IMG/VR virus record: IMGVR_UViG_3300042881_004673
Coordinates: 16,392-80,391 of that record
Direction: 5' to 3' (one strand)
Length of the DNA stretch: 64,000 bases
Source of the DNA: a virus
Positions 8,571 through 62,303 of this stretch are shown one piece after another. The number at the start of each line of letters is the position of its first letter. Positions within the stretch are counted from its first letter, which is position 1. The notes beneath the pieces are model-generated. The model was not told where the DNA came from and did no database searches. It saw nothing but the letters and a program-made list of their open reading frames with translations. Both the position numbers and the translations under genes were made by a program.

Positions 8571-9485
8571 ATGAAAGTGTCATTAACAGAAGAACAACTT
8601 AGATCATTCAATAATAGACTTATTTATGAAGGTATTTTGGACGACATGGTTTTCAAAATATCTTTAATTGTTGAGGACGGTAAAACCGAACCTGACATGG
8701 AGTGGGATTTCACCAATGTTAAAAAAGATATAGATAAATCAAAGTTATGGGTTAAAACAAAAGAAGATGCGATCCAATACGTTGAAAGTGTTGTGGATAA
8801 AATTAAAAATATTCCACCTGAATTAAGAAAAAAAATCTTAAAATATGTAATATATTCTTTTATTGGATTACTTTCAATTAAACAACTAAATAAAATGGTT
8901 GAACCAGTTGTAAAAAAGGCTGATCAAATTGAGAAAGAAACAATCGAAAAAATTATTTCACTAAGAATTAGAAAATCAAGTCCAGAATTATATGAACACA
9001 TGAGATATGAAGAAGGTTCCATAACAAAAAAAGGAGAACCTGTTTTGGTCGCCTATAATCTTGGTGATGGGGCATACACTATTGGTTATGGTCACGCAAT
9101 ATTTAGAGGTGAAAATGAAGGGTATGAATTCCTACCGAATTATAATAAAATAATACCAGGTAAAACTAAAATCACTAAAGATCAGGCGGAGATACTACTT
9201 AAAGACGATATTAGTAATTCCGAAGAGATAATAAATAAAATTCTTAATAAATGGGAAACAGAAGGTATTAAAATTAAGGTTAGTCAAGGAATGTATAATG
9301 CTATGGTATCAATGGCATATAATATGGGTCCTGGTATTATAAAAAGTGATTTTATTAAAGCTTTAAAATCGGGCAATACATATTTAGCGGCAGAAGAAAT
9401 ATTAACCACAAGTTCAAACCTGTTTAAAAAATTCCCCGGTCTTGAACCAAGAAGAATGAGGGAATATAAAATGTTTACATCATGA
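8571..9485 (+). CDS. GH24 phage lysozyme with N-terminal leader
   Basis: YEEG...GDGAYTIGYGH catalytic region, AMVSMAYNMG, GLEPRR..E; leader MKVSLTEEQL...LIYE. Confidence 0.85.
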   Translation: MKVSLTEEQLRSFNNRLIYEGILDDMVFKISLIVEDGKTEPDMEWDFTNVKKDIDKSKLWVKTKEDAIQYVESVVDKIKNIPPELRKKILKYVIYSFIGLLSIKQLNKMVEPVVKKADQIEKETIEKIISLRIRKSSPELYEHMRYEEGSITKKGEPVLVAYNLGDGAYTIGYGHAIFRGENEGYEFLPNYNKIIPGKTKITKDQAEILLKDDISNSEEIINKILNKWETEGIKIKVSQGMYNAMVSMAYNMGPGIIKSDFIKALKSGNTYLAAEEILTTSSNLFKKFPGLEPRRMREYKMFTS

Positions 9486-10165
9486 ATAAAGAAAAAATAT
9501 TAAAATTATTTAAAAACTTTGTGGGTGAAGAGGTAAACATTTCCGGACTTCAATGTATTCCTGTTGGGGTTGGTGAATATGGTTCACATAATTCTATTAT
9601 GGGTACCGGTTGGAATCCAAACCCATATCATCAAATTCACTTTAAAATAAAAAATCCAAATAATGTCTGTTATTTTTATGCAATAATTTATGAAGAGTTA
9701 TTAGAATTATTAGAAGAATTTACCCAATATATTAGTATTAAACTAAGACCAAATATAATATGGGAGGACACACAACCAAAATTTTATCTTAACGACGAAA
9801 CAAGAAACAAAATACAAAAAGTTTTTGACTCTGTAAAAGAAATTAAATTTACAACAGGAAATTTAGATGGTGATGGCAAAGAATATGTTATTGAAATAAA
9901 TTCAATTGGTTTTAACAATAAACATTTTGATCTTGAATCATTTTATCTCCAAAACAAGGTTGTTCCAATATCTGCAACAAAAAATGGCGAAAATGTTGAT
10001 GTGAGTGAGGTTATTTACAAATATATAGATGAGTTTTTACCTAAAGTAGAAACTTACTATGAGTCAGAAGAATATTATAAAAAAATAGATGAGATAATTA
10101 CCAAACATCCACTTTTAAATGCGGATTATATTGCGACTTATTACGATACAAAGTTTATCCAATAA
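9482..10165 (+). CDS. hypothetical protein
   Basis: 227-aa ORF, ATGA overlap with the lysozyme gene. Confidence 0.7.
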   Translation: MNKEKILKLFKNFVGEEVNISGLQCIPVGVGEYGSHNSIMGTGWNPNPYHQIHFKIKNPNNVCYFYAIIYEELLELLEEFTQYISIKLRPNIIWEDTQPKFYLNDETRNKIQKVFDSVKEIKFTTGNLDGDGKEYVIEINSIGFNNKHFDLESFYLQNKVVPISATKNGENVDVSEVIYKYIDEFLPKVETYYESEEYYKKIDEIITKHPLLNADYIATYYDTKFIQ

Positions 10166-11429
10166 CTTTCTTTGATCTTTTTTGTCGGTGAAAAGTAATC
10201 ACGAATCGGTGAACTTCATTTTGAATCTCAGCCAATAAAAACCCAAACTCACTTCTTGGAATATCAAAACTTGACCCATCAATCTTGTGTATTGTTTGAG
10301 ATTGGTGTTTATCGTTTTTAGAAATGGAGATCAAATCAATAGAAGATAACAATCCAAGAGATTCAAATACTTTTTTTGCAACACCCAACTGACCTTTACC
10401 GCCATCAATAACAACAAGTGAAGGTAACTCTTGTTTCTCATTTAAAAGTCTTTTGAAACGACGATTTAATACCTCAGTAAATGATGCGTAGTCATCAGGA
10501 CCCTCAACAGTTTTGATATTGAACTTACGATAGTTTGACTTATCGGTCTTACCATTCTTGTAACGAACAAGGGCAGACACCTGACAATCACCAGCAGTGT
10601 GAGAGTTATCAAAAGCTTCAATAAGAGTTGGAACATTCAATAAACCAAATTGTTCTTTGAAAGATCTTGAAATATCACAATACTTTCTAACACGAAACGA
10701 CTCAAGTTTTTTCTCTAACAAATCAACAACATCCATTTTGTTTTTTAAGTTCTGAGAAATCTCAAACTCCATTTGTTCAGAATGATACTTCATAAACTTT
10801 CTCAAACGATTTCGAACCTTGTCAAACTGAAAGGAAAATACATCTCTCATCTCACTTACAATCTTTAAGTAAGAAAACTTCTGAATTGAGGAAACACAAG
10901 GAGCATTACAACGACCAAGATGAAATTCCAAACAAGTCTTGAACTTTTCATTTTGAATATTTTCTTCAGTCAAGTTATAAGAACAAGATCTAAGATTGAA
11001 AATGTCATGAACCATCTCATAGATCTCATAACAAGAGTTAGAACTTGTAGATTCCAAAAGAACTTCACCAGTAAAGTTAGAAGGGTTACAAACTAAAAGT
11101 CTTGGGAACTCATCCGAACTCAAAGTGATAAACCAACGACGAGATCTGTCATCTTTTGCTTTGATGTTGTATTTTGGTTTGTGTGATTTGATAAGTTCGT
11201 CTTCCAACAAAAGAGCTTGAGATTCATCATCAGTGGTCATGAACTCAACATCACGAATCTCATTTACCAAGAAAGTTGTCTTTTTATCTTTGTGGTTTTT
11301 TTGAAAGTAAGACTTAACTCGTTTAGGTAAAAACTTTGACTTACCCACATAGATAATCTGACCCTTCTCGTTTTTGAAAAGGTAACAGCCACTAGATTGG
11401 GGTATATTTGAAAGTTTCTCTGTAATCAC
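10155..11429 (-). CDS. uvrC: UvrC-like excinuclease (GIY-YIG, UVR and RNase H-like domains; no C-terminal HhH)
   Basis: GCYLF...IYVGKS..L..RVKSYF, PKYNI, IEAFDNSH, YRKFNIKTVEGPDDYAS, VIDGGKGQL, EVHRFVITFHR; start re-called to GTG 11429, 4 nt after TATATTTG. Confidence 0.9.
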   Translation of the reverse strand: MITEKLSNIPQSSGCYLFKNEKGQIIYVGKSKFLPKRVKSYFQKNHKDKKTTFLVNEIRDVEFMTTDDESQALLLEDELIKSHKPKYNIKAKDDRSRRWFITLSSDEFPRLLVCNPSNFTGEVLLESTSSNSCYEIYEMVHDIFNLRSCSYNLTEENIQNEKFKTCLEFHLGRCNAPCVSSIQKFSYLKIVSEMRDVFSFQFDKVRNRLRKFMKYHSEQMEFEISQNLKNKMDVVDLLEKKLESFRVRKYCDISRSFKEQFGLLNVPTLIEAFDNSHTAGDCQVSALVRYKNGKTDKSNYRKFNIKTVEGPDDYASFTEVLNRRFKRLLNEKQELPSLVVIDGGKGQLGVAKKVFESLGLLSSIDLISISKNDKHQSQTIHKIDGSSFDIPRSEFGFLLAEIQNEVHRFVITFHRQKRSKKVIG

Positions 11430-11508
11430 AATACAAATATAGTAATTTTTTATGGTAATTTTAAGTAAAAATTTATTAATCAATATTTATTATTAATAAA
11501 ATAGAATA

Positions 11509-12300
11509 ATGGATGTAAATAGATTTAAAATATTGTTAGAATCTAAGTTAGGTAATATTAAAACATTAATATCTGAAGAAAAAAATGATGAAATAATCAA
11601 AATTCAAACAGATTTAGTTAATAAAGGTTATAATATTGGATTGTCTGGACCAAATAACGATGGTATTGATGGTGTTATGGGACCAAAAACAAAATTGGCA
11701 TATAAAAAAGAATTTGGCAAATCATATGGTGATGAGGTAACAAATAAATTAAATAATGACGAGTTAATAGGTAAAACGTCTATTAATGATTATGGTGAAA
11801 TATTGTTTTCTAAAAATAAAACAGCCCCATTACTTATGGTTTATGGTGGAATAAATGTTGGTGGAAAAAAAAGTGGGGTATATATGTGGGATTATGTTAA
11901 TAAATTAAAAGATAAATATACTATATTTGTTGCTAATGACCATAAGGTAAGTGGTCTTAATTCATATAAAAAAGTTTTAGAGTCTTTAAAGGAAAATAAT
12001 ATTACACCATCTTCTAAAATACTTTATTTATTTTCTGGTGGATATAAACCTGGAAAAGAATTACTAAATTCTAACTCAGGTGATTTTAGTGAAATTTTAC
12101 TTGTGGACATTTGGATGGGTGGGTCAGTAGGTAATTTTTATAAGAAATTTGTTAAAGACAATAGTTCAAAAGTTAAATATTATTATACCTCATTTGGATC
12201 TCAAAACGATGACGCTAAAAATTTTATATCCAAAATTGTTTCAAGTGTAAAAAATAGTAATCACATGGAAACAAATACTGATGCGGTTAACAATTTATAA
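11509..12300 (+). CDS. leader + peptidoglycan-binding domain + putative alpha/beta hydrolase-like domain
   Basis: IQTDLVNKGY...DGIDGVMGPKT (PG_binding_1-like); LFSGG elbow-like motif; leader RFKILLES...LISEE. Confidence 0.6.
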   Translation: MDVNRFKILLESKLGNIKTLISEEKNDEIIKIQTDLVNKGYNIGLSGPNNDGIDGVMGPKTKLAYKKEFGKSYGDEVTNKLNNDELIGKTSINDYGEILFSKNKTAPLLMVYGGINVGGKKSGVYMWDYVNKLKDKYTIFVANDHKVSGLNSYKKVLESLKENNITPSSKILYLFSGGYKPGKELLNSNSGDFSEILLVDIWMGGSVGNFYKKFVKDNSSKVKYYYTSFGSQNDDAKNFISKIVSSVKNSNHMETNTDAVNNL

Positions 12301-12728: not shown

Positions 12729-15545
12729 ATGAAAGATCTTGTAATACAAATATTAACAGAAGAATCAAAAAAATTAATTTTTGAGTCTGGTATTAGAAAC
12801 ATAAAAGAATTATCTAAACGATATCCTAAGGCAAAAATATATTTTCATCAGGATTTGGATGGAGTGACAACTGCTTTAGGTATGAAAAACTACTTAGAAC
12901 AAAATGGAATTAAAGTGGTTGACTCTGAAATTATCCAATATGGTGATAAGGAATTTGCAATTAAAAAATTAGACGCCGAAGGTGATGTTATGCCGGTGTT
13001 AGTTGACTTTGCTCACGGTAAACCAATGTTTGTTATACATACTGACCATCACGATACGCAAGCTGGTGTAGAACAAGGAACATCAACCAATTTTAAAGCG
13101 TCAAGATCAAACGTTGAGACAATATCTCAAACCGTATCACCAAACGACATTTTTCCATCAGACGATATAACTTTAATTTCTACTGTTGATTCAGCAAACT
13201 ACGCACAATACGATATAACACCCGAAGAGGTAATGAATTATTTGTTTAAGGTAGATAAAGATCAATCATTACAAAAAAACAAAATGGTTATGGGAATGGT
13301 AACCAATAAATTATTATTAGCATTTAAAAACAAACCAAAATTTTTAGAAAATATCGTAATGAATGCAAATCCATCACTATTAAGTATTTTAATGTATATT
13401 AAATCTCAAATTAAAGATAGTGGATATGCTGATGTGGACACATTAGAAAAAAATAAAGAGATGTATGTCCAATCAATGAAGATAAATAAGAATGTTAAAG
13501 TTGATGATGGGATAATAGTTCAATATGGTGGAGGTAGTATGATGAAACCAGGATCATATGATAGATACACACCATTCAGAAATAATCCTGACGCTGACTT
13601 CTTGGTGATTGCTTGGCCCTTAGGGTTGGTACAAGCGTCTTGTAATCCATTTAAGAAAGAAAGAGCACTTAAAGGTGTGAACTTAGGTGAAATTAAAGAT
13701 GAGGTCTTAAACAAGTGGAAATCACAATTACAAAATAAAGACATTCCTTTGTCCACAATTAAATGGATATCTGAATCAGGAAAAAGTTTTAATGAAGAAT
13801 CTGTTGGTTTTACATTTAAAGACTTTAATGCTTTGTATGGAAAAGAATTTAAAAGAATGGATAATGGTGAAAAAATATTAAATGATATTGATGTTGTAAT
13901 GAAAAAACCATTTAGTGAATTGACACAAAACGAAATGAAAATGTTGGACTCAATTAGTGTAAACGCTTGGGATTTAATTAAATCAAATAGTGGTGGACAT
14001 AAATGTATTACCAATATTTCAGGATTGTCTTATTTAGGTAGATCTAAACGACCACCTGAAGGTAAATATAAATATAATTCTGAATCTGATGACTCTCCAT
14101 ATGTTAAATTTACTAAAATGATACAAAATGAATTTGCAAGAATTCTTAAAGAAAAAATTAAAGAAACTAATAATGTTAATGAAAATTACAACTTAATTAG
14201 AAAAAAAGATTTAATTCCAAATCAGATTAATTACAAAAATATAAAAAAAATGTTAATAAAAGAAGAAACATTTGGGGCTACTTGGAAATCACCAATACCA
14301 GGAGATGCTGATTTACTTCATGCGTTTGAAAGACGAAAATCTGACAAACAAGGGGCTCTTATTGGAACCCAAATTGAGGAGAAACTAAAAAAACTTTATG
14401 ATGATGGAATTAACCCTGACATAACTGATTTAAAGTTAAATGTAGATTCTAAAAACTCTACGGTAACGTGGAGCGCAACTATTGGTCCTAGTACTGATGG
14501 TAAAGCATACATGGGAATTTCAACAAGAGGATCTACTGGTGGTAGTTCAGAAAAACGAGCTTTAGATCAAGTAGGTCCTTTAAAACAACAATTAAGTTCA
14601 AAAGGATATCAAGACATAACACCAATCACTTTTGACGGAAAAGACCATTTTGTAAATCCATCTGGTAATAAAATTCACCAATACTTTTTCAAATATACAG
14701 ACCCAAATAAATATCCACCTCACCCAACTAAAGATGGTTTAAATGTTGATAACACTAATACATCTTTAACAACAAACTCATCAGAAAATGATTTATTTGG
14801 TATAAAAGGTATTTTATCCAAAATTAAAGAAAAATTATTCAAAAACAAAACAAACACAAAAAGTAGTGATACAACAAGCAATAATACAACAAGTGGTGAC
14901 ACAACAAGTAATAATACAACCACCACAGATTCCGATTTTAAAACAATAACAAAAAAAGTAATTGCAAATTTTGAAGGAGGATATTGGAATCCATTTTGCC
15001 CGCACCCAACTAGCCGTATGGGTAAATCAACTGAGACTATGTTTGGTTTGGATAGGTATAATGGTAATATTGAAAGCACTGATAAAGGAAAAGAATTTTT
15101 TAAGATTATAGACGATGAAAAAATCGCAGCTGGAGCCACATCTAGTGGTGAAGGTAAAAACATGAAATGGACAAACATGGGTAACTTTTGTAAAAAATGG
15201 AAATGGTTATATAGAGGTGGAGATAAAAAAGAAAAATTAGAAGATCTTGCAACTGAAATTATGGAAAAATACTTTAATAAAAACATGAGTAGTTATATTA
15301 AAGACTCTAAGACCAAAGAAAAAATTATGGGAAATAAAGGATTATTAGTGCATATGTCATACGCAAGTTGGAATGGTCCCGGATTCTTTCAAAAATTCGG
15401 AAGAAAATTAGAAGCCGCGGTAAAAGACGGAAAATCCGACAAAGAATTAATTGATGTTGCCTGTCAATCAAGATTAGACACTGGATTAAACCAAAGTAAA
15501 GTAATAGAGGCCATTAAAAATCCTGATGGGATGAAAACGGCTTAA
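12729..15545 (+). CDS. polyprotein: DHH/DHHA1 phosphoesterase + unknown domain + C-terminal lysozyme-like (GH108-like) domain
   Basis: FHQDLDG, VDFA, HTDHH, SGGH; junctions NVNE and LIKEE; C-terminal NFEGGYWN...ETMFGLD...SWNGPG. Confidence 0.65.
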   Translation: MKDLVIQILTEESKKLIFESGIRNIKELSKRYPKAKIYFHQDLDGVTTALGMKNYLEQNGIKVVDSEIIQYGDKEFAIKKLDAEGDVMPVLVDFAHGKPMFVIHTDHHDTQAGVEQGTSTNFKASRSNVETISQTVSPNDIFPSDDITLISTVDSANYAQYDITPEEVMNYLFKVDKDQSLQKNKMVMGMVTNKLLLAFKNKPKFLENIVMNANPSLLSILMYIKSQIKDSGYADVDTLEKNKEMYVQSMKINKNVKVDDGIIVQYGGGSMMKPGSYDRYTPFRNNPDADFLVIAWPLGLVQASCNPFKKERALKGVNLGEIKDEVLNKWKSQLQNKDIPLSTIKWISESGKSFNEESVGFTFKDFNALYGKEFKRMDNGEKILNDIDVVMKKPFSELTQNEMKMLDSISVNAWDLIKSNSGGHKCITNISGLSYLGRSKRPPEGKYKYNSESDDSPYVKFTKMIQNEFARILKEKIKETNNVNENYNLIRKKDLIPNQINYKNIKKMLIKEETFGATWKSPIPGDADLLHAFERRKSDKQGALIGTQIEEKLKKLYDDGINPDITDLKLNVDSKNSTVTWSATIGPSTDGKAYMGISTRGSTGGSSEKRALDQVGPLKQQLSSKGYQDITPITFDGKDHFVNPSGNKIHQYFFKYTDPNKYPPHPTKDGLNVDNTNTSLTTNSSENDLFGIKGILSKIKEKLFKNKTNTKSSDTTSNNTTSGDTTSNNTTTTDSDFKTITKKVIANFEGGYWNPFCPHPTSRMGKSTETMFGLDRYNGNIESTDKGKEFFKIIDDEKIAAGATSSGEGKNMKWTNMGNFCKKWKWLYRGGDKKEKLEDLATEIMEKYFNKNMSSYIKDSKTKEKIMGNKGLLVHMSYASWNGPGFFQKFGRKLEAAVKDGKSDKELIDVACQSRLDTGLNQSKVIEAIKNPDGMKTA

Positions 15546-17174: not shown

Positions 17175-17651
17175 ATGAACCTACAAGAATCTATAAGAAG
17201 AATATTAAGAGAAGAATTTAATGAAGATAAGAATCTTTATGGTGAGAAATTAAAACCATGTTCAAGAAATCCAATGACAGGGTTTTACAAGGATGGGTAT
17301 TGTAGAACAGGAAATAATGACACAGGAAGTCATACGGTGTGCGCAAAAGTAACAGAAGAGTTTTTAGAGTTTACCAATTCAATGGGGAACAATCTTGATA
17401 TGTTGGAACCTGGTGACAAATGGTGTTTATGTGCAAAAAGATGGGAAGAGGCAAACAAAGAGGGAGTTGCTCCTGAAATGATTAAAAGTTCAACAAACAT
17501 TAAAACATTAAATATAATTGGTGGTATTGAACAAGAACTTGATGAATACGCAAGAACACTTAAAAACGCAAGACAACAGGGGGTTGGGTTAAGATTCCCA
17601 AAGTCGGCAATAAAGGCAAACCCAGCAAGGTTTAGGCCATACAACAGGTAA
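17175..17651 (+). CDS. leader + DUF2237-like domain + basic C-terminal peptide
   Basis: MNLQESIRRILREE then LKPCS..PMTGFYKDGYC...GSHTVCA...PGDKWCLCA.RW. Confidence 0.8.
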   Translation: MNLQESIRRILREEFNEDKNLYGEKLKPCSRNPMTGFYKDGYCRTGNNDTGSHTVCAKVTEEFLEFTNSMGNNLDMLEPGDKWCLCAKRWEEANKEGVAPEMIKSSTNIKTLNIIGGIEQELDEYARTLKNARQQGVGLRFPKSAIKANPARFRPYNR

Positions 17652-17652
17652 T

Positions 17653-17817
17653 ATGAAAAAAATAATAAGATTAACAGAATCAGAACTTATTTCATTAGTT
17701 AAAAGAGTAATGAAAGAAGGTGAACTTACAGAAAAATGTTGGGCAGGATATACTCAAAAAGGTATGAAGACAATGTTTGGTAAGAGATACCCTAACTGTG
17801 TTAAGAAGACAAAGTAA
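17653..17817 (+). CDS. small leader-tagged protein (54 aa) with CWxGY...PNCV motif; not in the ORF track
   Basis: MKKIIRLTESELISLVKRVMKEGELTEKCWAGYTQKGMKTMFGKRYPNCVKKTK*. Confidence 0.8.
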   Translation: MKKIIRLTESELISLVKRVMKEGELTEKCWAGYTQKGMKTMFGKRYPNCVKKTK

Positions 17818-18519: not shown

Positions 18520-19167
18520 ATGAAACACCTAATTAGAAAAATATTAAAAGAGGAGGTAAATAAGAAATACCCAAAACCAACACCAAACGTTGAAAAACTA
18601 ATATATAATTGGTTAAATAACTATTTTTCAGGATCTAAAATGTATCAAACAAAGGACTATGCGTTTAGCTATACTTTTGAATGGTGTAATAATGGTATGG
18701 AAATAGCTCAAGCTATTATAGATTTTAACCATGATCACGATGCTTGGGATGACAAAAGAAAAACAAGTGAACGAAATTTTGAATCAGGAGAATTTTCAAT
18801 ACCTGAAGATATTATAGATGATTTAGAAACTGATATACCGGTAAGAAGAAACTATTTAAGATATATTGTAGAAGAATGGTTTGAAGATACATTGTTAGAA
18901 AAAATCAAAAGTGCATTGGGAAGAAATGATATATCAATAGATGATTTTTCTGAACACCCTAAAAAGTCTCAAGTTTGCGTTCCTCCTGTTTCAAAACCTG
19001 AAGGGGTTACAGATGATGAAATGATTGATTTTATTGTCAAAAATACTTTATTTAGAAGAGATGAGTTAGAAAAAAGAATTGTAGATGAACGTGAATGGTT
19101 GGAAAAATTATATACAGATAAACTGCGTAGCTCAGAAGTGGATAGAGTAAGAGGAAGTAGATGGTAA
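18520..19167 (+). CDS. leader-tagged hypothetical protein
   Basis: MKHLIRKILKEE. Confidence 0.8.
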   Translation: MKHLIRKILKEEVNKKYPKPTPNVEKLIYNWLNNYFSGSKMYQTKDYAFSYTFEWCNNGMEIAQAIIDFNHDHDAWDDKRKTSERNFESGEFSIPEDIIDDLETDIPVRRNYLRYIVEEWFEDTLLEKIKSALGRNDISIDDFSEHPKKSQVCVPPVSKPEGVTDDEMIDFIVKNTLFRRDELEKRIVDEREWLEKLYTDKLRSSEVDRVRGSRW

Positions 19168-19613
19168 TGAGAAAACTTATTAAACACATATTAAAAGAAG
19201 AAGTATCTAAACAACAAATAGATAAGGGTATTGATATTGTTATTAACGGATTAAAAAAAGAATTTCCATTTGTTGTTGGTTGGAAATTACATGACAATTA
19301 TGATGAATATATAACAAGCATTTATATTGATTTGGTTGTTGAATATGAAAAAGTAAAAGAGTTCTATGGTTTAAAACCTAAAATGACGTATAGCCTTGAA
19401 TATATTAAAAACAGACAAGTGGCATATGTCCTTACTCCATTTAAATATGAAGGCAATTTTGACCCATATATAGAGTCTCAAAAATTAAGTGAATATGTAT
19501 TTGAAATGTATGAATATATACCTGAAGAATTAAAGTTAGAAGAAAAGGATACGTATGGTTCTTCAAGGACTAACTATAAAGCATTAAAAGTTGATGATTT
19601 TATTTTTGTTTAA
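19167..19613 (+). CDS. leader-tagged hypothetical protein
   Basis: MRKLIKHILKEE; TAATG coupling. Confidence 0.8.
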   Translation: MRKLIKHILKEEVSKQQIDKGIDIVINGLKKEFPFVVGWKLHDNYDEYITSIYIDLVVEYEKVKEFYGLKPKMTYSLEYIKNRQVAYVLTPFKYEGNFDPYIESQKLSEYVFEMYEYIPEELKLEEKDTYGSSRTNYKALKVDDFIFV

Positions 19614-19936
19614 TGAGAGGACTAATTAGATACATATTGAAAGAAGAAACAGAAGAAATTGACCAAAAGGTTATGAATTTTCTTGTGCGAAGATATGAAG
19701 TTAAAGAAATAAATATTGACGACAATATTAGACTTAAAAGGATTCATTTCAAAGTAGATGATGATTATTATAATATTGGAACTTTTGATAATAAAAAAAG
19801 ACAAGTAAGATTGATTTTAAATATGTTAGAAGATAATAATGTTACAGAACCAATTGATAATTTTTCAAATGAAAACAATCCATATAGACAAAAAGTTATT
19901 AGAACAATTAAAAAGTTTTTATCCCAAGTAATGTAA
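19613..19936 (+). CDS. leader-tagged hypothetical protein
   Basis: MRGLIRYILKEE; TAATG coupling. Confidence 0.8.
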   Translation: MRGLIRYILKEETEEIDQKVMNFLVRRYEVKEINIDDNIRLKRIHFKVDDDYYNIGTFDNKKRQVRLILNMLEDNNVTEPIDNFSNENNPYRQKVIRTIKKFLSQVM

Positions 19937-20370
19937 TGAAAGAGTTAATTAGACACATATTAAAAGAAGAAGAAAATGAAAACCTAAAAGAAAGGTTTGT
20001 TAGATCCGCCCAATCCATTCCTTATATTATCCAAAGTAATGTAGATTCAAATCTTTTTACAGAAATTGAAATTGGAAGTATTAATTATAATAACAATCAT
20101 AACAGCATTGATGGTGAATTGTTAATAACATCTTGGTGTGATGATCCTGACCTTTTTTCGTTTACAAACCAACTGAAATTAGTTGATAAAGAATTGGACA
20201 CAGTTTTACTTAATTATTCATTTACAAGTAACGGTTCTTTTGGGAAAAAGAAAGGTAAATATAATAACTTGATGTGTTGGTTTATTGGTTGTGAATGGAG
20301 TGCTGAAGGTGATTATACAATGAAGATGAAATACCATTTTACGCAAGAAGAATATGATGATGGTGAATAA
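19936..20370 (+). CDS. leader-tagged hypothetical protein
   Basis: MKELIRHILKEE; TAATG coupling. Confidence 0.8.
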   Translation: MKELIRHILKEEENENLKERFVRSAQSIPYIIQSNVDSNLFTEIEIGSINYNNNHNSIDGELLITSWCDDPDLFSFTNQLKLVDKELDTVLLNYSFTSNGSFGKKKGKYNNLMCWFIGCEWSAEGDYTMKMKYHFTQEEYDDGE

Positions 20371-43762: not shown

Positions 43763-44017
43763 ATGGGATTTAAAATATATATTACGGAAAAACAATTAGA
43801 CGTGGTTCTTAAAGATTTAATGTTAGTTGAGCAATATCCTCTATTACCAAATCAAGATACCCCACAATTAACCCACATTAAAAAAAAGAAAATAATGCCA
43901 GTCCCTAATCCGAAGAAATATTCAAAATAAAGAGTCTGCGCTAGACTACTAAAAAAACATGTGTCAGAATTTAAAAAAGTAATCTACGCTTTTGGTTTAA
44001 CTAAAGGATTAAAATAA
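43763..44017 (+). pseudogene. leader-tagged small ORF (43763-43930), possibly interrupted by a premature TAA
   Basis: MGFKIYITEKQLDVVLKDLMLVE...KYSK*; the same frame stays open for 28 more codons to 44017. Confidence 0.4.
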
Positions 44018-49190: not shown

Positions 49191-49245
49191 ATAAAATTCT
49201 CGAAAAAGACCTGTTTTTGGTCATTTTTTGTCTATATATATAACA

Positions 49246-49272
49246 AAAAAACCCCTAAAATAGGGGTTTTTT
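49246..49272. terminator. bidirectional terminator
   Basis: AAAAAACCCCTA-AAA-TAGGGGTTTTTT. Confidence 0.8.
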
Positions 49273-49343
49273 GATTAAAATAGAGGTTATTTTAGTCTTT
49301 TTGTATAATATCCTCAATAAAAAAATTAGTTATAATGTGGACG

Positions 49344-50573: not shown

Positions 50574-51206
50574 ATGACTTTAACCAAACAGACAATAGTT
50601 GAATCTTATAAGTATGATTCTTTGATAAGAAAAATTGTCAAAGATATTGTCACACTATATAAGGAAAAGGGTGTGGGAGAATATTATCTTCCTGAGGACA
50701 TTAATGAGAATGAATATGAATATCATTTTAAAGATATTTTTGTTACTGTTGAATTATTATTAGAGGAATCCAAAAGTGTTGATGGATTTTTATTAAACGC
50801 GGATTACTATTCTGACGACGATGATGGTGAAGATGTTGTCATTGTTAAAATCGTATATAATCCTGAAACAAAAAATAAAATATTATATGACATGATTGGA
50901 GAGTTAAATGAAATTTTAGCTCATGAATTAAGACACAACTACCAAAAAAACAAAGGTTTATTCGACTTTAATGTTGAACCAAATGATGATGAAGATGACG
51001 AAGAAGAAGGATATGATTATTACACAAAACCAAAAGAATTAGATTCTCAATACTACGGATTTAAAAGAATGTCTAAAATTACGGGAAGACCATTTAATGA
51101 TGTAATGATAGGTTGGTTTAAAAAGTATAAGGATGTTCATAAAATGAACGACGATGAAGTAAAACTTACCATTAAGAAAATATTAGACTATAAGACTAAT
51201 CTTTAA
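50574..51206 (+). CDS. zincin-like (HExxH) protein
   Basis: LAHELRHNYQ...YY..PKELDS. Confidence 0.6.
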   Translation: MTLTKQTIVESYKYDSLIRKIVKDIVTLYKEKGVGEYYLPEDINENEYEYHFKDIFVTVELLLEESKSVDGFLLNADYYSDDDDGEDVVIVKIVYNPETKNKILYDMIGELNEILAHELRHNYQKNKGLFDFNVEPNDDEDDEEEGYDYYTKPKELDSQYYGFKRMSKITGRPFNDVMIGWFKKYKDVHKMNDDEVKLTIKKILDYKTNL

Positions 51207-51816
51207 ATCTTTTAATTATCTTATCTATTAATGTTGTTAATAAATTAGACGCAAAAATACCACCAGTGTAATGACTAACACCAGTTACAATTAGATTGAC
51301 TTGTTGTTCTGATAAATCAAGATCTGACATATCTTTTAATAAAGGAACTAATGGGATTAAAAAAGTATAAGCAATCATGTTAGAAACTTTTGAAAATGTA
51401 ATATTTAAACTATCTAAAAAATTAAACATAGCATCTTTTAGTTCGTAAGATTTTATCATTGCCCTATCAAAAAAAGTTATTAATTTTTTTTCTTTTATAA
51501 TTTCTAAAACTTTATGTAATTTTTCTTTATTGGTTGAGAAAAACGTTAAAGTTATTCCAAAACAAATTAAAGTAATGTCAGATTCTGATAAGTTTGAATA
51601 ACGATCCTCCATGTAATTTGAGATTGGACCAACAAATCCCCCAATAACAGAACCCCAAGTTAATAAAAAAGTAAAATCAATTCCAAATTGTTTTTTAACA
51701 TCTTTTAAAAATTTCTTTGTAAAGTCTCTTGATTTTTCAAAAATTCCGGCAATTTCTTCCTCTTGTTGTTCTTTTAATAATTTAATAAATTGTGATTCCG
51801 TTAAAATTAAATCCAT
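51196..51816 (-). CDS. leader-tagged membrane protein
   Basis: MDLILTESQFIKLLKE; several hydrophobic segments. Confidence 0.7.
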   Translation of the reverse strand: MDLILTESQFIKLLKEQQEEEIAGIFEKSRDFTKKFLKDVKKQFGIDFTFLLTWGSVIGGFVGPISNYMEDRYSNLSESDITLICFGITLTFFSTNKEKLHKVLEIIKEKKLITFFDRAMIKSYELKDAMFNFLDSLNITFSKVSNMIAYTFLIPLVPLLKDMSDLDLSEQQVNLIVTGVSHYTGGIFASNLLTTLIDKIIKRFKD

Positions 51817-51922: not shown

Positions 51923-52585
51923 ATGAACGCATATTTTTTTAAAATGGATAAACAAGAAAAAGACAATATCTTGGATCAACATAAACATATTTATGATGGT
52001 TATGTGACTAAATATAATCAACAGAGTAATCAGACTCCATTATATGTTCAGGATTTGGCAAACGATAAGATGGGTTTAACTGTAAATAACAAAGGAGTTG
52101 TTAAACCATATAGCAACATGAATATTAATGAAACACACACAGGATCAGACATGATTGGTGGTGACCCACAATCTCAAAGTAATATGAAATACCGTCATTT
52201 AAAAAACGGAACTGTTGATTTTGATAATTTTTCTGATACTAATTTAGTAGATAAAGACACTATGAATGATAACTACCCTTCTCCAAACGAAAACGAACAA
52301 GAATATGTGAGCTATGGTAATTTTAAAGATGAAATGAGTCAAAATTTAGATCAATATGAATATGACATTGATGAGTTAGAGGATTACTCAACAGATGGTT
52401 TATATTCGGATAATGATGAAACGGAAGATGATGAAACGGAAGATGATGAAACGGAAGATGATGAAGATTATAATTTTTCTGATGACTTAGATATTTCTAG
52501 TGTTGACGAAGAAAACCAATATGATGTTTTATCAAACATAAATGAGTCTTTAAATATGTTTAAAAAATTTAAAAATTATAATTAA
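51923..52585 (+). CDS. leader-tagged acidic protein
   Basis: Start re-called to MNAYFFKMDKQEKDNILDQH; INE junctions. Confidence 0.75.
   Translation: MNAYFFKMDKQEKDNILDQHKHIYDGYVTKYNQQSNQTPLYVQDLANDKMGLTVNNKGVVKPYSNMNINETHTGSDMIGGDPQSQSNMKYRHLKNGTVDFDNFSDTNLVDKDTMNDNYPSPNENEQEYVSYGNFKDEMSQNLDQYEYDIDELEDYSTDGLYSDNDETEDDETEDDETEDDEDYNFSDDLDISSVDEENQYDVLSNINESLNMFKKFKNYN
52413..52465 (+). repeat. 15-bp tandem repeat ATGATGAAACGGAAG x3.5 (DDETE)
   Basis: Read directly. Confidence 0.9.
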
Positions 52586-53704: not shown

Positions 53705-55018
53705 ATGGTAAGAAATATACAAATTAATGAATCTGAAAAAAGAGAGTTATTAAAACAACATTCTAACAATAAATCTTTTTTAATTGAAGATGATGTTGTT
53801 TTTACAAATTGGTTAAGTTCCGATAATAAATATGTCGTATTTATGGATCAATTAATTGAAGTAAAAACAAAAACAAATTTAGGGGATATTTGGAAAAATC
53901 CAGACAACCTATTTTTATTTTTAGAACATCTTTATAAAACTTCCAAATTTACATCGGTAATAAAAGAAGAAGCGTCTAACTTTTTTTCCAAAAGACTTAT
54001 AATGGAAGGTAATAGAGATTTATCGTCAATTAAACATTTAATTAAAATTTTAATTAAAGAAGATAATGCAATCCAATGGCTTTGGAATAAAGGAGTACAG
54101 GGAGTAAAAGCTGTGGGTAATTTTGTGGTAGACACCGTAAAATCAACCTACACAGGCATTAAAGACACACTTTCACAAGCTTGGGATGGTATAAAAGCGG
54201 CAGGTATTGCAATTTCTAAAGGGGATTTTACAGAACTTATGGCAATAATTGGCAGAGGGTTTTTATGGGCGGCAAGAAAAATAAGGTCCGCCGCTTATAG
54301 CACTGTTGGTATGATTGTAGATGCCATTTTAATAGCGACTGGTGTTGGTAAAATTGGTCAGGTAGTTGTTTGGGCGATCATTGTTGCGTTAGACCTTTAT
54401 GAATTTATTAACGAAGATTATGAAAACAAAGATGATCCTATGTGGGTAAGATATTTATTTTTTGGATGTGATGTTTTAGGGTTAGTTTTTGCTGGGGCAG
54501 CTGCGGGAGGAGCAAGAGCCGTAATAAAAGGGGTTTTTAAAGGAATTTCTTCAGGGGCTGAAGCGGCAGTAACAATCGCTAAAAACAAATCCATAATGGG
54601 AATTCTTACAAAAATGGTTGGAGCGATGAAAGATTTACCAGCTAAATTCGCTCAGCATTCTGCAAAACTTGGAACAGGTTTTTTTGCTAAGTTATTTGGA
54701 CCGGCTTTAACTGGTCTTGGAAAGGTAGTTACCGGGTTTTTAAATTCAATAAAATCATTATTTAGTAAACCACAATTTAGACCTGTTTTAATACAACTTG
54801 GATTAATAACTGGATTAGGAGCTTATGGTGAAATACAAAAAGAAAAACTTTCCGATTTAGAAACCAAAAAGAAAGAAATGGATAAACAAAACGCAATTAA
54901 TGCGGCATCGGTTGAAAAACAAAATAAAGAATTGGCAACAAAATCTGATGATTTATTGGCAGCTTTAGATACTGGTGAGAATAATTTGGACGATATAAAT
55001 GCATGGGGAAATGATTAA
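53705..55018 (+). CDS. leader-tagged helical multi-TM protein
   Basis: MVRNIQINESEKRELLKQH; several LIxE sites; Gly/Ala-rich TM helices. Confidence 0.75.
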   Translation: MVRNIQINESEKRELLKQHSNNKSFLIEDDVVFTNWLSSDNKYVVFMDQLIEVKTKTNLGDIWKNPDNLFLFLEHLYKTSKFTSVIKEEASNFFSKRLIMEGNRDLSSIKHLIKILIKEDNAIQWLWNKGVQGVKAVGNFVVDTVKSTYTGIKDTLSQAWDGIKAAGIAISKGDFTELMAIIGRGFLWAARKIRSAAYSTVGMIVDAILIATGVGKIGQVVVWAIIVALDLYEFINEDYENKDDPMWVRYLFFGCDVLGLVFAGAAAGGARAVIKGVFKGISSGAEAAVTIAKNKSIMGILTKMVGAMKDLPAKFAQHSAKLGTGFFAKLFGPALTGLGKVVTGFLNSIKSLFSKPQFRPVLIQLGLITGLGAYGEIQKEKLSDLETKKKEMDKQNAINAASVEKQNKELATKSDDLLAALDTGENNLDDINAWGND

Positions 55019-56369: not shown

Positions 56370-58085
56370 ATGGATGTAAGTAGTATTTTAAGTAAAATTT
56401 TAAATGAAGAATATGTGGTAGGTAAAACCGGAAGAGGTATAAATTATAAAGACACTAATTTGGTATTATCAAACGCCAAAACAAATTGCCCAACTTTAAA
56501 GTTTTTAGGTGGTATAAAATCAATGACACCATCATCCCCTATAGATGGAAATGTTCCTTTAATGAATAAGTTTCCCGAAATTTACAATATGACACCAGAT
56601 GCTGTTGCCTATGCGTCGGGTAAACTTGGTAGTGAAAATATTGTGGTTTTTGGTGTTGTAGATCCTAACACACAATCAGGAAAAAGAGGTTTATTAGCTT
56701 ATACAGTTGCCTCAGGACTAAAACCTCAAAGATTCCCAGGAGGAGCTGGAACCGGATGTGGAGAACTACAAAGATTTGAGGATTATGGTCAAGGTAATTT
56801 ATCTGAATATAATAAAGCGGTGTTAGATTCTTATTTAAAAAGATATGGTGGTATGTATACCACTGCTGAACCGTCTAATATGAGTAATTTTATTGCAGTT
56901 GAATATAGAGATTTAAGACAAAATGGTAAACAATTGCCTTGGGATGGTGATCCTCAGGGAAAAGTTTGGAGAAAAGTTGAGGGTGGTAGTCAACAATTTC
57001 TTGACAACGCCGAAGAAACTGACAAGATAATGAAAGAACAAGGATTTACCGACATACAACCTTCAAATCAAACTGAATTGGGTTTAGGGTTTACTTTAAA
57101 ATCGGCAAAAGACAATTTGGGAACTATGGGGATTGACTCAAGTGTGGCCACAACTAAGGCGTATTGGCCAACTAGAAATGGTGGTGTTGTTTTTGACCCA
57201 ACTCCTGATCAATGTAGAGAATTTGTAAGACTACTTAAAGCTTGTAAAAATAACGATAAAAGTGTTACTAAAGATCAGTGTAATGAAAAACTAATACAAA
57301 GAAAGTTAAGTACAATTAGTTGTAATAAAAAAGGAATGTTTAAAGCGGGAGGAATACTTGGTCTTAAAGATGATTTTGAAGCCTTAATAGGTGACCCTAC
57401 GTATTATGGTTTACAGAATTTAGCGACTGGTCTTGGAACAGTTACTCAGGGCAATATCACAGCAGAATCAACTTTAGAGTTTAAGATCAATAATATTTTA
57501 AATGAAGAACATAGAAAATTTTCGTTTAATAATGTTAAAAAACATCAATATAATTTTAATAAAGAGTTGGTTGAGGATTTTTCATCTCAGTTAGTTTTAA
57601 GTGCCTATTTTGATCTTCAAAAATCTATGAAAAAATTAAACAGATTAAATGAAGGTCTTGCTGGCGATATCTTTGGTGGTCTTGGGTTTAACTTAGGAGA
57701 CAAACTAATGGGGGGTGCAAAAGAAACCATCGTTACTTACATTGTCAAAAAACTTGGGTTTAAGGCGGATGATTTTATCACATTACTTATTATAAATGTT
57801 TTTGCAAATTTAGATGTTGCTGACTACAAAGAATTTTTTACTAATTGTTCTAAATTTACAAAAATAATTGTAAAATCCGCGCTAGAAGCTTGGTTGGATC
57901 TGGCCATGAAAAAAATTGGGAGCGGGAAGGGGTCTATGGAAGGGTTTGTTTATTCGGCGCTTAAAAATACGGTAACAGAAACCGCGGCACAAACAACAGT
58001 ATTTAAAAGATTAGAAATTTTAGCAGAAAATATGGTTTGTCCAATAGTTCAAAATATAGATGATATGGGAGAAGCTTTAATTTAA
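56370..58085 (+). CDS. leader-tagged multi-module protein
   Basis: ILSKILNEE; internal INNILNEE and LNE-GL. Confidence 0.75.
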   Translation: MDVSSILSKILNEEYVVGKTGRGINYKDTNLVLSNAKTNCPTLKFLGGIKSMTPSSPIDGNVPLMNKFPEIYNMTPDAVAYASGKLGSENIVVFGVVDPNTQSGKRGLLAYTVASGLKPQRFPGGAGTGCGELQRFEDYGQGNLSEYNKAVLDSYLKRYGGMYTTAEPSNMSNFIAVEYRDLRQNGKQLPWDGDPQGKVWRKVEGGSQQFLDNAEETDKIMKEQGFTDIQPSNQTELGLGFTLKSAKDNLGTMGIDSSVATTKAYWPTRNGGVVFDPTPDQCREFVRLLKACKNNDKSVTKDQCNEKLIQRKLSTISCNKKGMFKAGGILGLKDDFEALIGDPTYYGLQNLATGLGTVTQGNITAESTLEFKINNILNEEHRKFSFNNVKKHQYNFNKELVEDFSSQLVLSAYFDLQKSMKKLNRLNEGLAGDIFGGLGFNLGDKLMGGAKETIVTYIVKKLGFKADDFITLLIINVFANLDVADYKEFFTNCSKFTKIIVKSALEAWLDLAMKKIGSGKGSMEGFVYSALKNTVTETAAQTTVFKRLEILAENMVCPIVQNIDDMGEALI

Positions 58086-61109: not shown

Positions 61110-61142
61110 TAAACGTCCCATCATAATTGTTGGGGTTTTTTA

Positions 61143-61646
61143 TTAGGGCCTTGTCGGATTAACTTGTTTAAGAATGTTAGTTATGGCAGTAACTGCTGTG
61201 TTAGACGGTGTTGTATTAACCCTTGAAACCCCATCAATTTTAGTCATCTTATTCATAATAGGATCTATTAATCCAGTATTTATAAATGTTTTCATGGTGG
61301 GGACAGCTTTAAATTGATAGTCATAAATAGCCCTAAGTCTTACCCCATCAACATTAAGTTCTGTATTCCCAAAGTATGGCTTCCACACAATCTCTTCTTC
61401 ACCACTAGAGTCTCTCATTCCCGTTGTTCTTTTAACTGAAAAATAATTCTTAGGTTTATTAGGGTTGTCTGTGTAATATTGATTTAATGAGTTATTATAG
61501 AATGTTGCAACCCCTTGTAGTGCGGTTGTTATATTTGTATTTACAGTGAGTGAATCAAACACTTCATTAATTAATGGTTTAGAATCTCCCATGGTGGATT
61601 CCATTAAGTTGTAAAATCTTTTTTTATAATCGTTAATTTTTTTCAT
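61143..61646 (-). CDS. leader-tagged hypothetical protein
   Basis: MKKINDYKKRFYNLMESTMGDSKPLINE. Confidence 0.75.
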   Translation of the reverse strand: MKKINDYKKRFYNLMESTMGDSKPLINEVFDSLTVNTNITTALQGVATFYNNSLNQYYTDNPNKPKNYFSVKRTTGMRDSSGEEEIVWKPYFGNTELNVDGVRLRAIYDYQFKAVPTMKTFINTGLIDPIMNKMTKIDGVSRVNTTPSNTAVTAITNILKQVNPTRP

Positions 61647-61661
61647 AATTGTTGGGTTTTA

Positions 61662-62303
61662 TTAAGGTTTTGTAGATGATTGGGGTTTTGTAGGTGCCTC
61701 GGGCATTGCGTATGAGGTGAGTCGTTCTGTATAAATTGGGTTAATAATATCTATGTAATTTTTAAAGGTTGTTTTATTTACATACCGATCACGTACTTGT
61801 CCACTATAAATCCCTATTCTTGAAGTATCAGTATGATCACCACCAGCGGCTTTAAATGCTGCCTGAAGACCTGGAGTATTGTATATAACTGAAAAAAATC
61901 TATCAACATCTGTAATTAAATTTCTTAATCCCACTAAAGCACTTACTAAAAATATCTGAGCGGCCATCATTGAAAGTTCACCATTCATTGTAGTTACCGC
62001 TATATTAATATTAGGATTCAGCTTTCTTACCCACGAATTCCACTGAGCAGGTCTATTACTGTCATTAGTCTTTTCAACTAATGAAGGAAACAAAGTTAAA
62101 TCTCTTACCCATGGACCGTTGGACAATGAAACTTTAGGAACGGTTTTAAACGCCTCGAAAGATGCTTTGTCTTTAAAATCCCTACTTCTTCCTTTTATTG
62201 CTCCAGGTGGAGTATAAACTTCCATAAGTAATGGTCTAACATCACCAATTGTGGATTCCATTAAGTTGTAAAATCTTTTTTTATGATCGTTAATATTTTT
62301 CAT
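61662..62303 (-). CDS. leader-tagged hypothetical protein
   Basis: MKNINDHKKRFYNLMESTIGDVRPLLME; TATTTAT(-) at 62317-62323. Confidence 0.75.
   Translation of the reverse strand: MKNINDHKKRFYNLMESTIGDVRPLLMEVYTPPGAIKGRSRDFKDKASFEAFKTVPKVSLSNGPWVRDLTLFPSLVEKTNDSNRPAQWNSWVRKLNPNINIAVTTMNGELSMMAAQIFLVSALVGLRNLITDVDRFFSVIYNTPGLQAAFKAAGGDHTDTSRIGIYSGQVRDRYVNKTTFKNYIDIINPIYTERLTSYAMPEAPTKPQSSTKP

Follow-up and report, generated by a model that had tools for sequence, protein, structure and literature searches.

Short N-terminal leader peptides shared by unrelated proteins of an uncultured jumbo phage are candidate capsid-targeting propeptides

About 40 unrelated genes in the window (the 64,000-nt stretch of viral DNA analyzed here) were found to start with leader peptides that are short, conserved, and of only a few kinds (Table 1). 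On balance, sequence evidence favors the view that these leaders are portable N-terminal propeptides with a role like that of the T4 capsid-targeting sequence (CTS), i.e., that they would load the attached protein into the capsid and then be removed by a protease. Wherever the capsid-targeting reading made a prediction that could be computed, the outcome agreed with it. The window comprises 28% of a ~290-kb uncultured jumbo phage, best explained as belonging to a clade of Bacteroidota jumbo phages that is related to T4 and uncultured.

Leader classes in the window

The leader positions given by a first-pass annotation each fell on an ORF start or at most three codons from one, with the stated motif present; the starts at 49871, 51816, 61646, and 62303 proved to be those of minus-strand genes. 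The leader placed at 20363 belongs to an ORF starting at 20354 (MMMVNKDLIRHILKEE), and those at 29470 and 31573 begin at internal ATGs, the program-made list beginning both ORFs earlier, at GTG. The count of about 40 includes approximately eight loose forms (12729, 49871, 49928, 56370, 43763, and some of class E).

Two sequences were scored as similar when they shared at least 9 identities in 18 residues. Among the 128 called genes, 30 were similar to at least one other in their first 26 residues, giving 83 pairs. Residues 40–66 of the same 128 proteins (control) formed none, and N-termini shuffled 20 times formed zero to two. This N-terminal likeness is well beyond chance expectation. Past residue ~25 the leader proteins are unrelated, as had been proposed: after removal of the first 32 residues, members of classes A, B, and C had no mutual BLASTP match at 1e-3, and the few paralogous body matches were 35635/36432/39408, 30271/37271, and 38224/41770.

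The division into six classes stood in part. The motifs of classes A, D, E, and F were recovered; classes B and C reduce to a single leader in two variants, with the common core I(R/K)(R/H)IL(R/K)EE. The class A consensus is MKRIIRLTESDLTRIVKRVIxE, and in a relative, hybrid leaders (e.g., MKKVIKLTESQLEDIIKRVINE) connect it to the short class D leader (MKIIITExQ). A class E regular expression matched nine times in ~123,000 residues, always at protein residues 8–10, and the conserved block of class F ended at [LI]-x-E in six of six members (window plus relative). When leader HMMs were scanned over all six frames, 20 of the 20 significant class A matches began at an ORF Met; one internal class B copy was found, in ORF 24212–25129.

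Table 1. Leader-bearing genes of the window.
Positions	Strand	Feature	Remarks
17653..17817	+	Class A, 54 aa	MKKIIRLTESELISLVKRVMKE
28434..29153	+	Class A, 239 aa	MKRIIRLTESDLTRIVKRIIME
29470..29835	+	Class A, 121 aa	MSKIIRLTERDLSRIVRQTIME
29861..30208	+	Class A, 115 aa	
30743..31387	+	Class A, 214 aa	TATTTAT at -24
31573..32142	+	Class A, VanY-type peptidase body, 189 aa	Pfam PF02557, residues 101-185, E 3e-10
32186..32719	+	Class A, 177 aa	
32722..33216	+	Class A, 164 aa, widespread body family	94 relatives
33241..33528	+	Class A, 95 aa	
34787..35113	+	Class A, 108 aa	
35242..35538	+	Class A, 98 aa	
40351..40677	+	Class A, 108 aa	
44092..44652	+	Class A, diverged leader, 186 aa	MGKKIRLTESAFHSLIRRLVIE
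43420..43755	+	Possible truncated class A leader	MINESDIKRIVKKV; groups with class A; weak HMM match, iE 0.33
17175..17651	+	Class B, complete DUF2237 domain	Pfam PF09996, residues 19-116, E 2.5e-38
23574..24170	+	Class B, 198 aa	
24171..24206	+	Leader-only stub MNLQENIQSIR*	
24212..25129	+	Cyanophycin-synthase N-domain protein, internal class B copy, then second body	Copy at aa 155-169, nt 24674-24718
25756..26277	+	Class B, ...RIRSMMG subtype, 173 aa	
26274..26603	+	Class B, 109 aa	
18520..19167	+	Class C, first in five-gene array	MKHLIRKILKEE; TATTTAT at -13
19167..19613	+	Class C	Ortholog in relative G043 without leader
19613..19936	+	Class C	
19936..20370	+	Class C	
20354..23527	+	Class C, 1057 aa	No Pfam match, no PHROG match
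12729..15545	+	Loose C-like, 938 aa	G043 ortholog without leader
49344..49871	-	Loose C-like	…KINKIVRSVLNEE
49928..50515	+	Loose C-like	Homologous G043 body has class A leader
56370..58085	+	Loose C-like	MDVSSILSKILNEE
8571..9485	+	Class D, phage lysozyme body	Pfam PF00959, residues 159-298, E 6e-17
35635..36435	+	Class D	TATTTAT at -12
36432..37274	+	Class D	
39408..39842	+	Class D	Body matches C-terminal module of 35635
40753..41337	+	Class D	Homologous G043 body has class B leader
43763..43930	+	Loose class D (MGFKIYITEKQ)	
51196..51816	-	Class D (MDLILTESQ)	
39918..40307	+	Class E	
42869..43345	+	Class E	
51923..52585	+	Class E-like	G043 ortholog: same leader
53705..55018	+	Class E	
11509..12300	+	Class F-like	RFKILLESKLGNIKTLISE
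61143..61646	-	Class F	…KKRFYNLMESTMGDSKPLINE↓
61662..62303	-	Class F	…KKRFYNLMESTIGDVRPLLME↓

Modularity, spread and upstream DNA

Class A conservation dropped directly past I-x-E (93 distinct bodies, viral contigs). The DUF2237 domain, the lysozyme, and the VanY peptidase each lie behind a leader; the DUF2237 domain at 17175 is whole and of bacterial type, with the leader an add-on before it. Orthologous bodies in the window and in G043 carried different leaders (C vs. none, C-like vs. A, D vs. B). Within the 164-aa family, one subgroup has residues 6–19 swapped and two I-x-E sites kept. The AF2 model of the 32722 protein (pLDDT mostly <50 in the leader and mostly >90 in body residues 61–164) depicts the leader as a low-confidence helix attached to a well-folded body. 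Bodies of leader genes include peptidoglycan-acting ones: lysozyme, VanY, PG_binding_1, and LysM.

Class A was found in more than 119 viral contigs, in 3 of 185,579 prokaryote genomes, and at the head of 9,533 protein clusters. No cultured phage was found with a class A leader, and no published description of this leader was found in the literature. Flavobacterium phage immuto, a cultured relative, has analogous leaders; its 73-aa gene at the T4 gp67 position has a leader common to four other genes. Sequence comparison showed that the leaders are modular and selected as peptides, that leaders of different classes can replace one another on orthologous bodies, that they are confined to viruses, and that thousands of unrelated bodies carry them.

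A single tag borne by so many unrelated proteins would also fit systems of one maturase and many substrates, in which the leader serves for recognition by a modifying enzyme (RiPP-type or radical-SAM) and is not a sorting signal. That account is highly improbable, as no radical-SAM gene was found in the contig or in three complete relatives (G043, G015, and G018), no conserved enzyme gene was seen adjoining the leader arrays, and the bodies are folded proteins of 80–1000 aa rather than peptides.

The motif TATTTAT lay at most 45 nt upstream of 43/128 and 104/370 genes (expected 2–3%), and leader genes were enriched for it (Fisher p 0.008 and 0.001). It was also upstream of terminase, portal, protease, scaffold, sheath, and gp25 homologs. 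Because TATTTAT also preceded a gp41-like helicase gene, and a search for a gp55-like sigma gave weak matches only, late expression is presumed from the motif.

Many leader genes were preceded by a GGGGTTTTTT-type hairpin and by TATTTAT 11–12 nt before the ATG, and some paralogs had near-identical upstream DNA (e.g., 30743 and 32186). These features would suit a conserved unit that acts chiefly at the DNA level, as a cassette joint made up of terminator, promoter, and first codons. Such a joint would aid recombination and let late mRNAs with a short leader or none be expressed efficiently, and the peptide would be a passenger without a sorting role. In T4-like phages, PeSL promoter-terminator cassettes mediate such gene shuffling (PMC4122927, PMC2839356). 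PeSLs likewise surround small ORFs of unknown function with a stem-loop terminator and a promoter and are swappable in hyperplastic regions. They are, however, non-coding early-promoter elements, whereas here the conserved unit reaches into an amino-acid-selected peptide and the promoter motif is common to structural genes. The cassette account is quite improbable. Leader synonymous sites are free to vary, codon use at conserved leader positions being that of the bodies, and Arg codon families switch (Arg15: AGA.39, CGA.34, CGT.21). The 22 conserved codons extend well past any initiation determinant, and the leader is kept in those 9,533 clusters across contigs with differing flanking DNA. Shuffling is itself compatible with a peptide function, as at the T4 internal-protein locus.

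Candidate cleavage sites and head genes

Leader similarity had been described as mostly ending at a hydrophobic residue-x-Glu, and this was borne out for [ILV]-x-Glu at 93 of 94 boundaries, the remaining one being Asp. Within bodies, the residue following [ILVM]-x was Glu 174 times and Asp 279 times; helices in general prefer Glu over Asp, and [LI]-x-E is by itself common, occurring in 25% of random internal 25-residue windows of this Lys/Glu/Ile-rich proteome. Class A offers two candidate sites, L-T-E at residue 9 and I-x-E at residue 22. T4 gp21 cleaves after L/I-x-E, and Asp in place of that Glu stops processing (PMC9026906). Among capsid proteins of relatives, 12 of 12 have L-I-(N/Y)-E↓A ~22 residues before a PIVRR motif, where T4 gp23 is cut (L-T-E↓A). 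The protease of the clade thus probably keeps a T4-like specificity.

No head genes were present in the 28%-complete contig, so the link between leaders and protease depends on relatives. Complete relatives (295–412 kb) have a T4-type head module with a gp23-like capsid protein and a gp21-like S77 protease, in the order terminase-portal-protease-scaffold-capsid. The S77 protease, which the first-pass annotation had proposed to look for, was found in 9 of 10 complete leader-bearing relatives (5/5 and 4/5) and retains the positions of T4 gp21 His85 and Ser140. The tenth relative had no S77 protease, no detectable terminase, and only a 48-residue capsid-like fragment, so its head module probably lies beyond the contig. 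A gp23-like capsid protein was found in 11 of the 12 relatives tested, and 2,566 phage records match. The protease gene of the 400-kb clade is immediately followed by one class A gene, and a second class A gene adjoins; in G043, no head-module protein has a class A leader.

Amphipathic helices with an L/I/V stripe are interaction modules of a generic kind, and the leader could instead be a docking or oligomerization helix, retained on proteins that are not packaged in the head, for another late partner (a tail or baseplate adaptor, the inner membrane, a phage chaperone, or a shared regulatory subunit). Peptidoglycan-acting bodies could then act at the envelope or tail, and longer proteins do hold internal leader copies. 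Some orthologs manage without any leader, so packaging may be optional or the tag may have another role. Docking is nevertheless unlikely, if credible: it leaves unexplained that four independent classes end in hydrophobic-x-Glu with Glu over Asp at 93:1, and that leader genes adjoin the protease gene. The leaders lack a hydrophobic core for membrane insertion, and long hydrophobic stretches were absent from 86 of the 89 bodies.

As a check proposed against the capsid-targeting reading, leader-tagged proteins were examined for replication and nucleotide-metabolism domains, and none had one. The bodies showed no charge bias like that of the basic T4 internal proteins.

Relation to known systems and proposed role

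In T4, the CTS is carried by IPI, IPII, IPIII, and Alt and is removed by the prohead protease gp21 (PMC9026906, PMC3012670, PMC5694885); Alt is cut at ITE-6 (PMC5694885). As in T4, a short N-terminal propeptide ending in hydrophobic-x-Glu is common to unrelated, polymorphic proteins, the genes lie in variable, cassette-like regions, and head genes resembling gp23, gp20, and gp21 are present in the lineage. Class D MKIIITE resembles T4 Alt MELITE, and class C MKELIRHILKEE resembles gp24 MAKINELLRE and gp22 MLKEQLIAE (NC_000866). Unlike in T4, the class A leader has 22 residues and two candidate sites (T4 IPIII, 10 residues), lacks sequence homology to the 10-residue CTS MKTYQEFIAE, and is one of at least four to six classes rather than a single one. 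The hosts are Bacteroidota, and the leaders are known from sequences alone. Dozens of genes per genome and ~10^4 protein clusters overall are tagged, compared with four to five proteins in T4.

In the phiKZ-like giant phages, many head-internal proteins are processed after Glu by a gp21-related protease, and propeptides occur on inner-body and ejection proteins (phiKZ gp175, SPN3US gp245; PMC10052503, PMC5694885). Some of these propeptides are short (20–24 residues) and can contain several cut sites. The motif there is S/A-x-E or A-x-E, vs. I/L-x-E here, and the capsid proteins (not gp23-like by sequence) and genome type differ. No mention of a leader common to unrelated proteins was found in that literature (PMC10052503, PMC5694885).

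Under the capsid-targeting reading, genes with TATTTAT would be expressed late in infection along with the head genes, as their shared motif suggests. The leader, predicted to form a short hydrophobic strand and then an amphipathic helix, would bind the prohead scaffolding core and so put the attached protein inside the shell. The gp21-like S77 protease would then cut after hydrophobic-hydrophobic-x-Glu, as suggested by where the motif lies, by the preference for Glu, and by the site conserved in the capsid protein, releasing the body from the core. By analogy, the freed proteins would remain in the head with the DNA, and some at least may enter the host at infection.

Leader peptides and bodies in the window

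All-against-all comparison of the first 26 residues of the 128 called genes yielded 83 similar pairs, against none for residues 40-66 of the same proteins and 0-2 for shuffled N-termini. This bears out the claim of the first-pass annotation that leaders are common to otherwise unrelated proteins. Translation recovered the motifs at every coordinate to which that annotation had assigned them, with the correction that four of these are starts of minus-strand genes. The two largest N-terminal clusters comprised 13 genes with the class A leader (containing IIRLTE(S/R)DL) and nine genes with classes B (MNLQE(N/S)IxRI) and C (MKxLIRxILKEE), which form a single leader type (core IRRILKEE). After removal of 32 N-terminal residues, the bodies (the protein parts after the leader) of the members of these clusters had no mutual BLASTP similarity. 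A phage lysozyme body stood behind a class D leader (MKIIITExQ), a VanY peptidase body behind class A, and a class B leader preceded a whole DUF2237 domain. Simple paralogy was rejected because of the different known folds among the bodies and their lack of mutual similarity.

Classes E and F were also real. In approximately 123,000 residues the class E pattern (xEKxxILxxH/Y) had nine matches, each of them positioned at residues 8-10 of its protein, and similarity among class F copies (RFxxLxESxxG) ended at [LI]-x-E in six of six. A six-frame scan of the contig and a complete relative with a class A HMM gave 20 significant matches, every one starting at the first Met of its ORF. Leaders were charged and amphipathic, as had been described, and had no Sec, Tat or lipoprotein hydrophobic core of at least 10 residues after a basic N-terminus; true signal peptides were present on other contig genes, e.g., the gene at 45714. 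The described end at hydrophobic-x-Glu was found as I-x-E at residue 22 in class A, L-x-E in classes B and C, and I-T-E in class D, as well as in class F. Reading these ends as marks of capsid targeting is limited by the frequency of [LI]-x-E, a motif that by chance is present in one of every four random 25-residue windows.

In an AlphaFold2 model of the 164-aa class A protein, a helix at residues 9-21 (pLDDT mostly <50) preceded a β-rich body at residues 61-164 (pLDDT mostly >90). A low-confidence helix before a well-folded body is what an appended tag would be expected to give in such a model. Foldseek searches with this model returned nothing from the PDB at E ≤0.001, and uncharacterised phage proteins alone from BFVD.

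Some proteins contained two or three leader copies. One ORF on IMG/VR contig 3300031992_000053 read as body, leader, body and leader-only end, and a DNA-level check found no intervening stop. Tandem ORFs of this kind (proteins P0095-P0113) had two to three class A copies with different bodies, some with a leader-only tail, and may represent cargo polyproteins or cassette arrays in decay. Within the window, a single ORF joined a cyanophycin-synthase N-domain (PF18921, E 2e-44) to an internal class B leader and, after it, another uncharacterised body; just upstream of this ORF lay a leader-only stub (MNLQENIQSIR, then a stop). By sequence, the region looks like two cassettes fused in frame. Under a protease model, internal leaders would be cleavable joints.

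Distribution, exchange and conservation of the leaders

IMG/VR was scanned with a degenerate DNA pattern for IIRLTE(S/R)DL, which located class A at at least 119 loci. Among the matches listed, nearly all lay 2-4 codons past an ORF start and 93 distinct bodies were represented; positions that the pattern did not fix had the residues (T/H)-R-I-V-K-R-V-I-x-E, and after the I-x-E the information content fell from approximately 2.8 bits to <0.6 bits. Class B was found at 31 further viral loci with 25 bodies. The class A pattern occurred in 3 of 185,579 prokaryotic species genomes. Searches of 50,697 GenBank phage records (tblastn and blastn) gave no real match to the class A leader, and no cultured phage bearing it was found among these records. 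With a class A leader profile, 9,533 of 1.84 billion cluster representatives (clustering at 50% identity) matched at E ≤0.001.

Just five of 89 distinct class A proteins contained a Pfam domain: PG_binding_1 (twice), LysM, DUF6576, and HD. Pfam and PHROG scans left almost all leader-tagged proteins without a match, no family in them covered the leader itself, and no internal-virion-protein family was found among the tagged proteins tested. An ESM Atlas search with the leader returned just unnamed viral clusters, all below 0.9, and a full-text search for the motif strings found no description of the leader in print.

Comparison with G043, a complete relative with head genes, showed that leaders are exchangeable between bodies. 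There, the body of gene 19167 was leaderless, the body of gene 49928 had a class A leader, and the body of gene 40753, which is class D in the window, had a class B leader. A subgroup of the 164-aa family had the middle of the leader replaced and both I-x-E sites retained. Some orthologs were wholly without a leader, which limits the capsid-targeting reading.

A rival explanation is that the leader is a cassette or expression element. In codon alignments of the leaders, synonymous sites varied freely (Thr ACA/ACT/ACG/ACC; Leu TTA/CTA/CTT/TTG; Arg AGA/CGT/CGC), and, in other contigs, the conserved leader positions of 89 distinct class A genes had the same codon use as the bodies. These two results indicate selection on the peptide, and the second led us to reject DNA-level conservation as the main cause. 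Should the leaders turn out not to sort proteins, one would still have to explain why thousands of unrelated viral proteins bear a strictly selected peptide of 22 residues.

T4-type head module, protease and candidate cleavage sites

The window spans bases 16392-80391 of an 80,391-bp single-contig virus record. CheckV estimated this record as 28% complete, which places the genome size near 290 kb. No head or tail genes were recognised on this 28% portion, and the gp21-family Peptidase_S77 protease was absent from it. All leader contigs with a CheckV completeness estimate extrapolated to approximately 200-430 kb, mostly near 300 kb. The T4 gp21-like prohead protease for which the first-pass annotation had proposed to look was present in the lineage: Peptidase_S77 scored above the Pfam cut-off in all but one of ten leader genomes that are complete or nearly so. 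At the positions matching T4 gp21 His85 and Ser140, which we take to be catalytic, the residues were conserved in the proteases of these relatives. In the tenth genome (G046), terminase and protease were not detectable and the capsid-like match was a 48-residue fragment, so that its head module probably lies off the linear contig; its value as a counter-example, with leaders and no protease, is weakened accordingly.

The G043 genome (321 kb, direct terminal repeats) has 46 of the 128 contig genes in common with the window. Its head genes were ordered terminase, portal, two small genes, protease, scaffold-like acidic protein, and capsid protein, the last of which matched 2,566 phage records, T4-likes included. 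In the larger leader-bearing relatives (400-kb clade), a 132-aa class A gene immediately followed the protease gene and was adjoined by a 110-aa class A gene. Two of these genomes contained an insertion between protease and class A gene that was missing from two others and behaves as a mobile, homing-endonuclease-type element.

No class A leader was found on the G043 head-module proteins, and the bodies, in which a charge bias was sought, were neither especially basic nor acidic; both results limit the capsid-targeting reading. The leader could instead be a docking element with a role other than capsid targeting. Bearing on capsid targeting followed by cleavage is the leader end itself, where the residue after [ILVM]-x was Glu in 93 of 94 distinct class A proteins; in the bodies, Asp was commoner than Glu in the same context (279 vs. 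174). Cleavage by gp21 follows the rule L/I-x-E, and in T4 Asp at that site allows targeting but blocks processing (PMC9026906). The same motif was found in the capsid protein: 12 capsid proteins of the clade had L-I-(N/Y)-E followed by Ala, approximately 22 residues ahead of a conserved PIVRR motif, and T4 gp23 has L-T-E|A, the gp21 cut site, at the matching place.

Several T4 propeptides (NC_000866) have the same form as the leaders: Alt MELITE, gp24 MAKINELLRE, gp22 MLKEQLIAE, and IPII/IPIII MKTYQEFIAE. The Alt propeptide is cut at ITE-6 (PMC5694885). The leaders have no sequence homology to the T4 capsid-targeting sequence MKTYQEFIAE, and the likeness, as between class D and Alt, is in form alone. 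Another explanation, that the leader is the recognition tag of a RiPP-type or radical-SAM maturase, was found wanting and rejected because no radical-SAM gene (PF04055) was matched in the source record (G000), G043, or genomes G015 and G018.

Flavobacterium phage immuto (vB_FspM_immuto, MW353176.1; 160 kb; host Flavobacterium sp. LMO8) was among the closest cultured relatives by capsid protein (41% identity). It has the same T4-type head module, and its own genes share N-terminal leaders that fall into three families, all of which have hydrophobic-x-Glu sites. One 73-aa leader gene occupied the T4 gp67 position between the portal and protease genes, and another family heads a PduO-type (cob(I)alamin) adenosyltransferase. 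With this head module and these leader families, immuto makes the capsid-targeting hypothesis directly testable.

Probable hosts, upstream motif and proposed meaning of the leaders

The contig (G+C approximately 30%) codes for a CHU_C/SprB type IX-secretion protein, lipoprotein-type signal peptides, glycosyltransferases, a UvrC-like nuclease, and lysis-type enzymes. The type IX secretion domain, together with the few cellular matches in Prevotellaceae and Bacteroidales assemblies, points to Bacteroidota as the hosts.

In the 45 nt ahead of each gene, the promoter-like motif TATTTAT was present for 43 of 128 window genes and 104 of 370 G043 genes (expected 2-3%), mostly at -11/-12 or -20 to -24. 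It was enriched on leader genes, and most leader genes without it lay directly downstream of one having it. Homologs of terminase, portal, protease, scaffold, sheath, and gp25 also had the motif upstream, and leader genes may accordingly be expressed with the head genes, late in infection. The late-sigma family phrog_234 matched weakly in three relatives, and direct gp55 homology gave weak matches at most. A fuller form, (A/G)TATTTAT(A/T) then an A-rich stretch, was found window-wide and in G043, 10-20 times commoner upstream of genes than expected and often directly 3' of a GGGGTTTTTT-type hairpin. Of its two favoured distances to the ATG (11-12 nt and 20-24 nt), the shorter would give nearly leaderless mRNAs.

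Coordinates of features in the window and in related genomes
Record	Coordinates	Feature
Window	2087-7119	Two large paralogs (932 and 719 aa); sole match phrog_15511 (unknown function); both flanked by glycosyltransferase-like genes
Window	15727-17159	Family 2 glycosyltransferase gene overlapping the start of a calcineurin-like metallophosphoesterase gene; immediately 5' of first class B leader gene
Window	24171-24206	Leader-only stub
Window	24212-25129	Cyanophycin-synthase N-domain ORF with internal class B leader
Window	30718-30742, 35622-35634, 39395-39407	Examples of (A/G)TATTTAT(A/T) with A-rich stretch
Window	32722-33216 (+)	164-aa class A protein
Window	45714-48170	818-aa protein with signal peptide, SprB repeats, PKD-like domain and CHU_C type IX secretion domain; 47% identity to a gene in 634-kb uncultured phage LR745206.1
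3300031992_000053 (L104)	7388-8899	Tandem class A ORF
G043 (inside L157)	299538-299729 (-)	63-aa opposite-strand ORF in head module; by-eye likeness to ribosomal protein bS21 (MIIVKLDKHTNIEKALKILK...)
G043	300317-301042	Protease
G043	301394-302887	Scaffold
G003, G002 (L128, L129)	48707-49678; 357096-358109	323-337-aa gene with Cys-rich N-terminus between protease and neighbouring class A gene
immuto (L210-L217)	102250, 102836, 113144, 123311, 81481	Leader family MKKSQL..IIKE, 5 genes, one at T4 gp67 position
immuto (L210-L217)	1803, 103762, 117587, 118588	Leader family MENFDLKKFLVENKLT..LLKE, 4 genes
immuto (L210-L217)	25470, 111631	Leader family ...AGIITES, 2 genes

Judged from sequence comparison and the structure model, capsid targeting with removal by the prohead protease is the best available candidate explanation of the leaders, and one that we somewhat favour. 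More tentatively, we propose that a globally distributed and still uncultured clade of Bacteroidota phages (300-400 kb) may send roughly 10^4 protein families into the capsid by means of a small set of portable leader peptides.

Should the leaders prove to be tags for capsid loading, sequence alone would mark the proteins injected by, or carried in the virions of, a large phage group known from metagenomes only, and metagenomes could be mined with a one-line sequence rule for injected proteins that act in anti-defence or takeover. Approximately 9,500 functionally uncharacterised protein clusters would then be candidate early-acting proteins of host takeover, cell-wall entry or anti-defence. 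The leaders would also provide a ready packaging tag for engineering phages of Bacteroidota (Flavobacteria, Prevotella and relatives). The T4 capsid-targeting principle, known from a handful of proteins, would here be scaled up and diversified into several interchangeable classes, and the phage head would deliver a set of effectors on a par with the repertoires of bacterial secretion systems.
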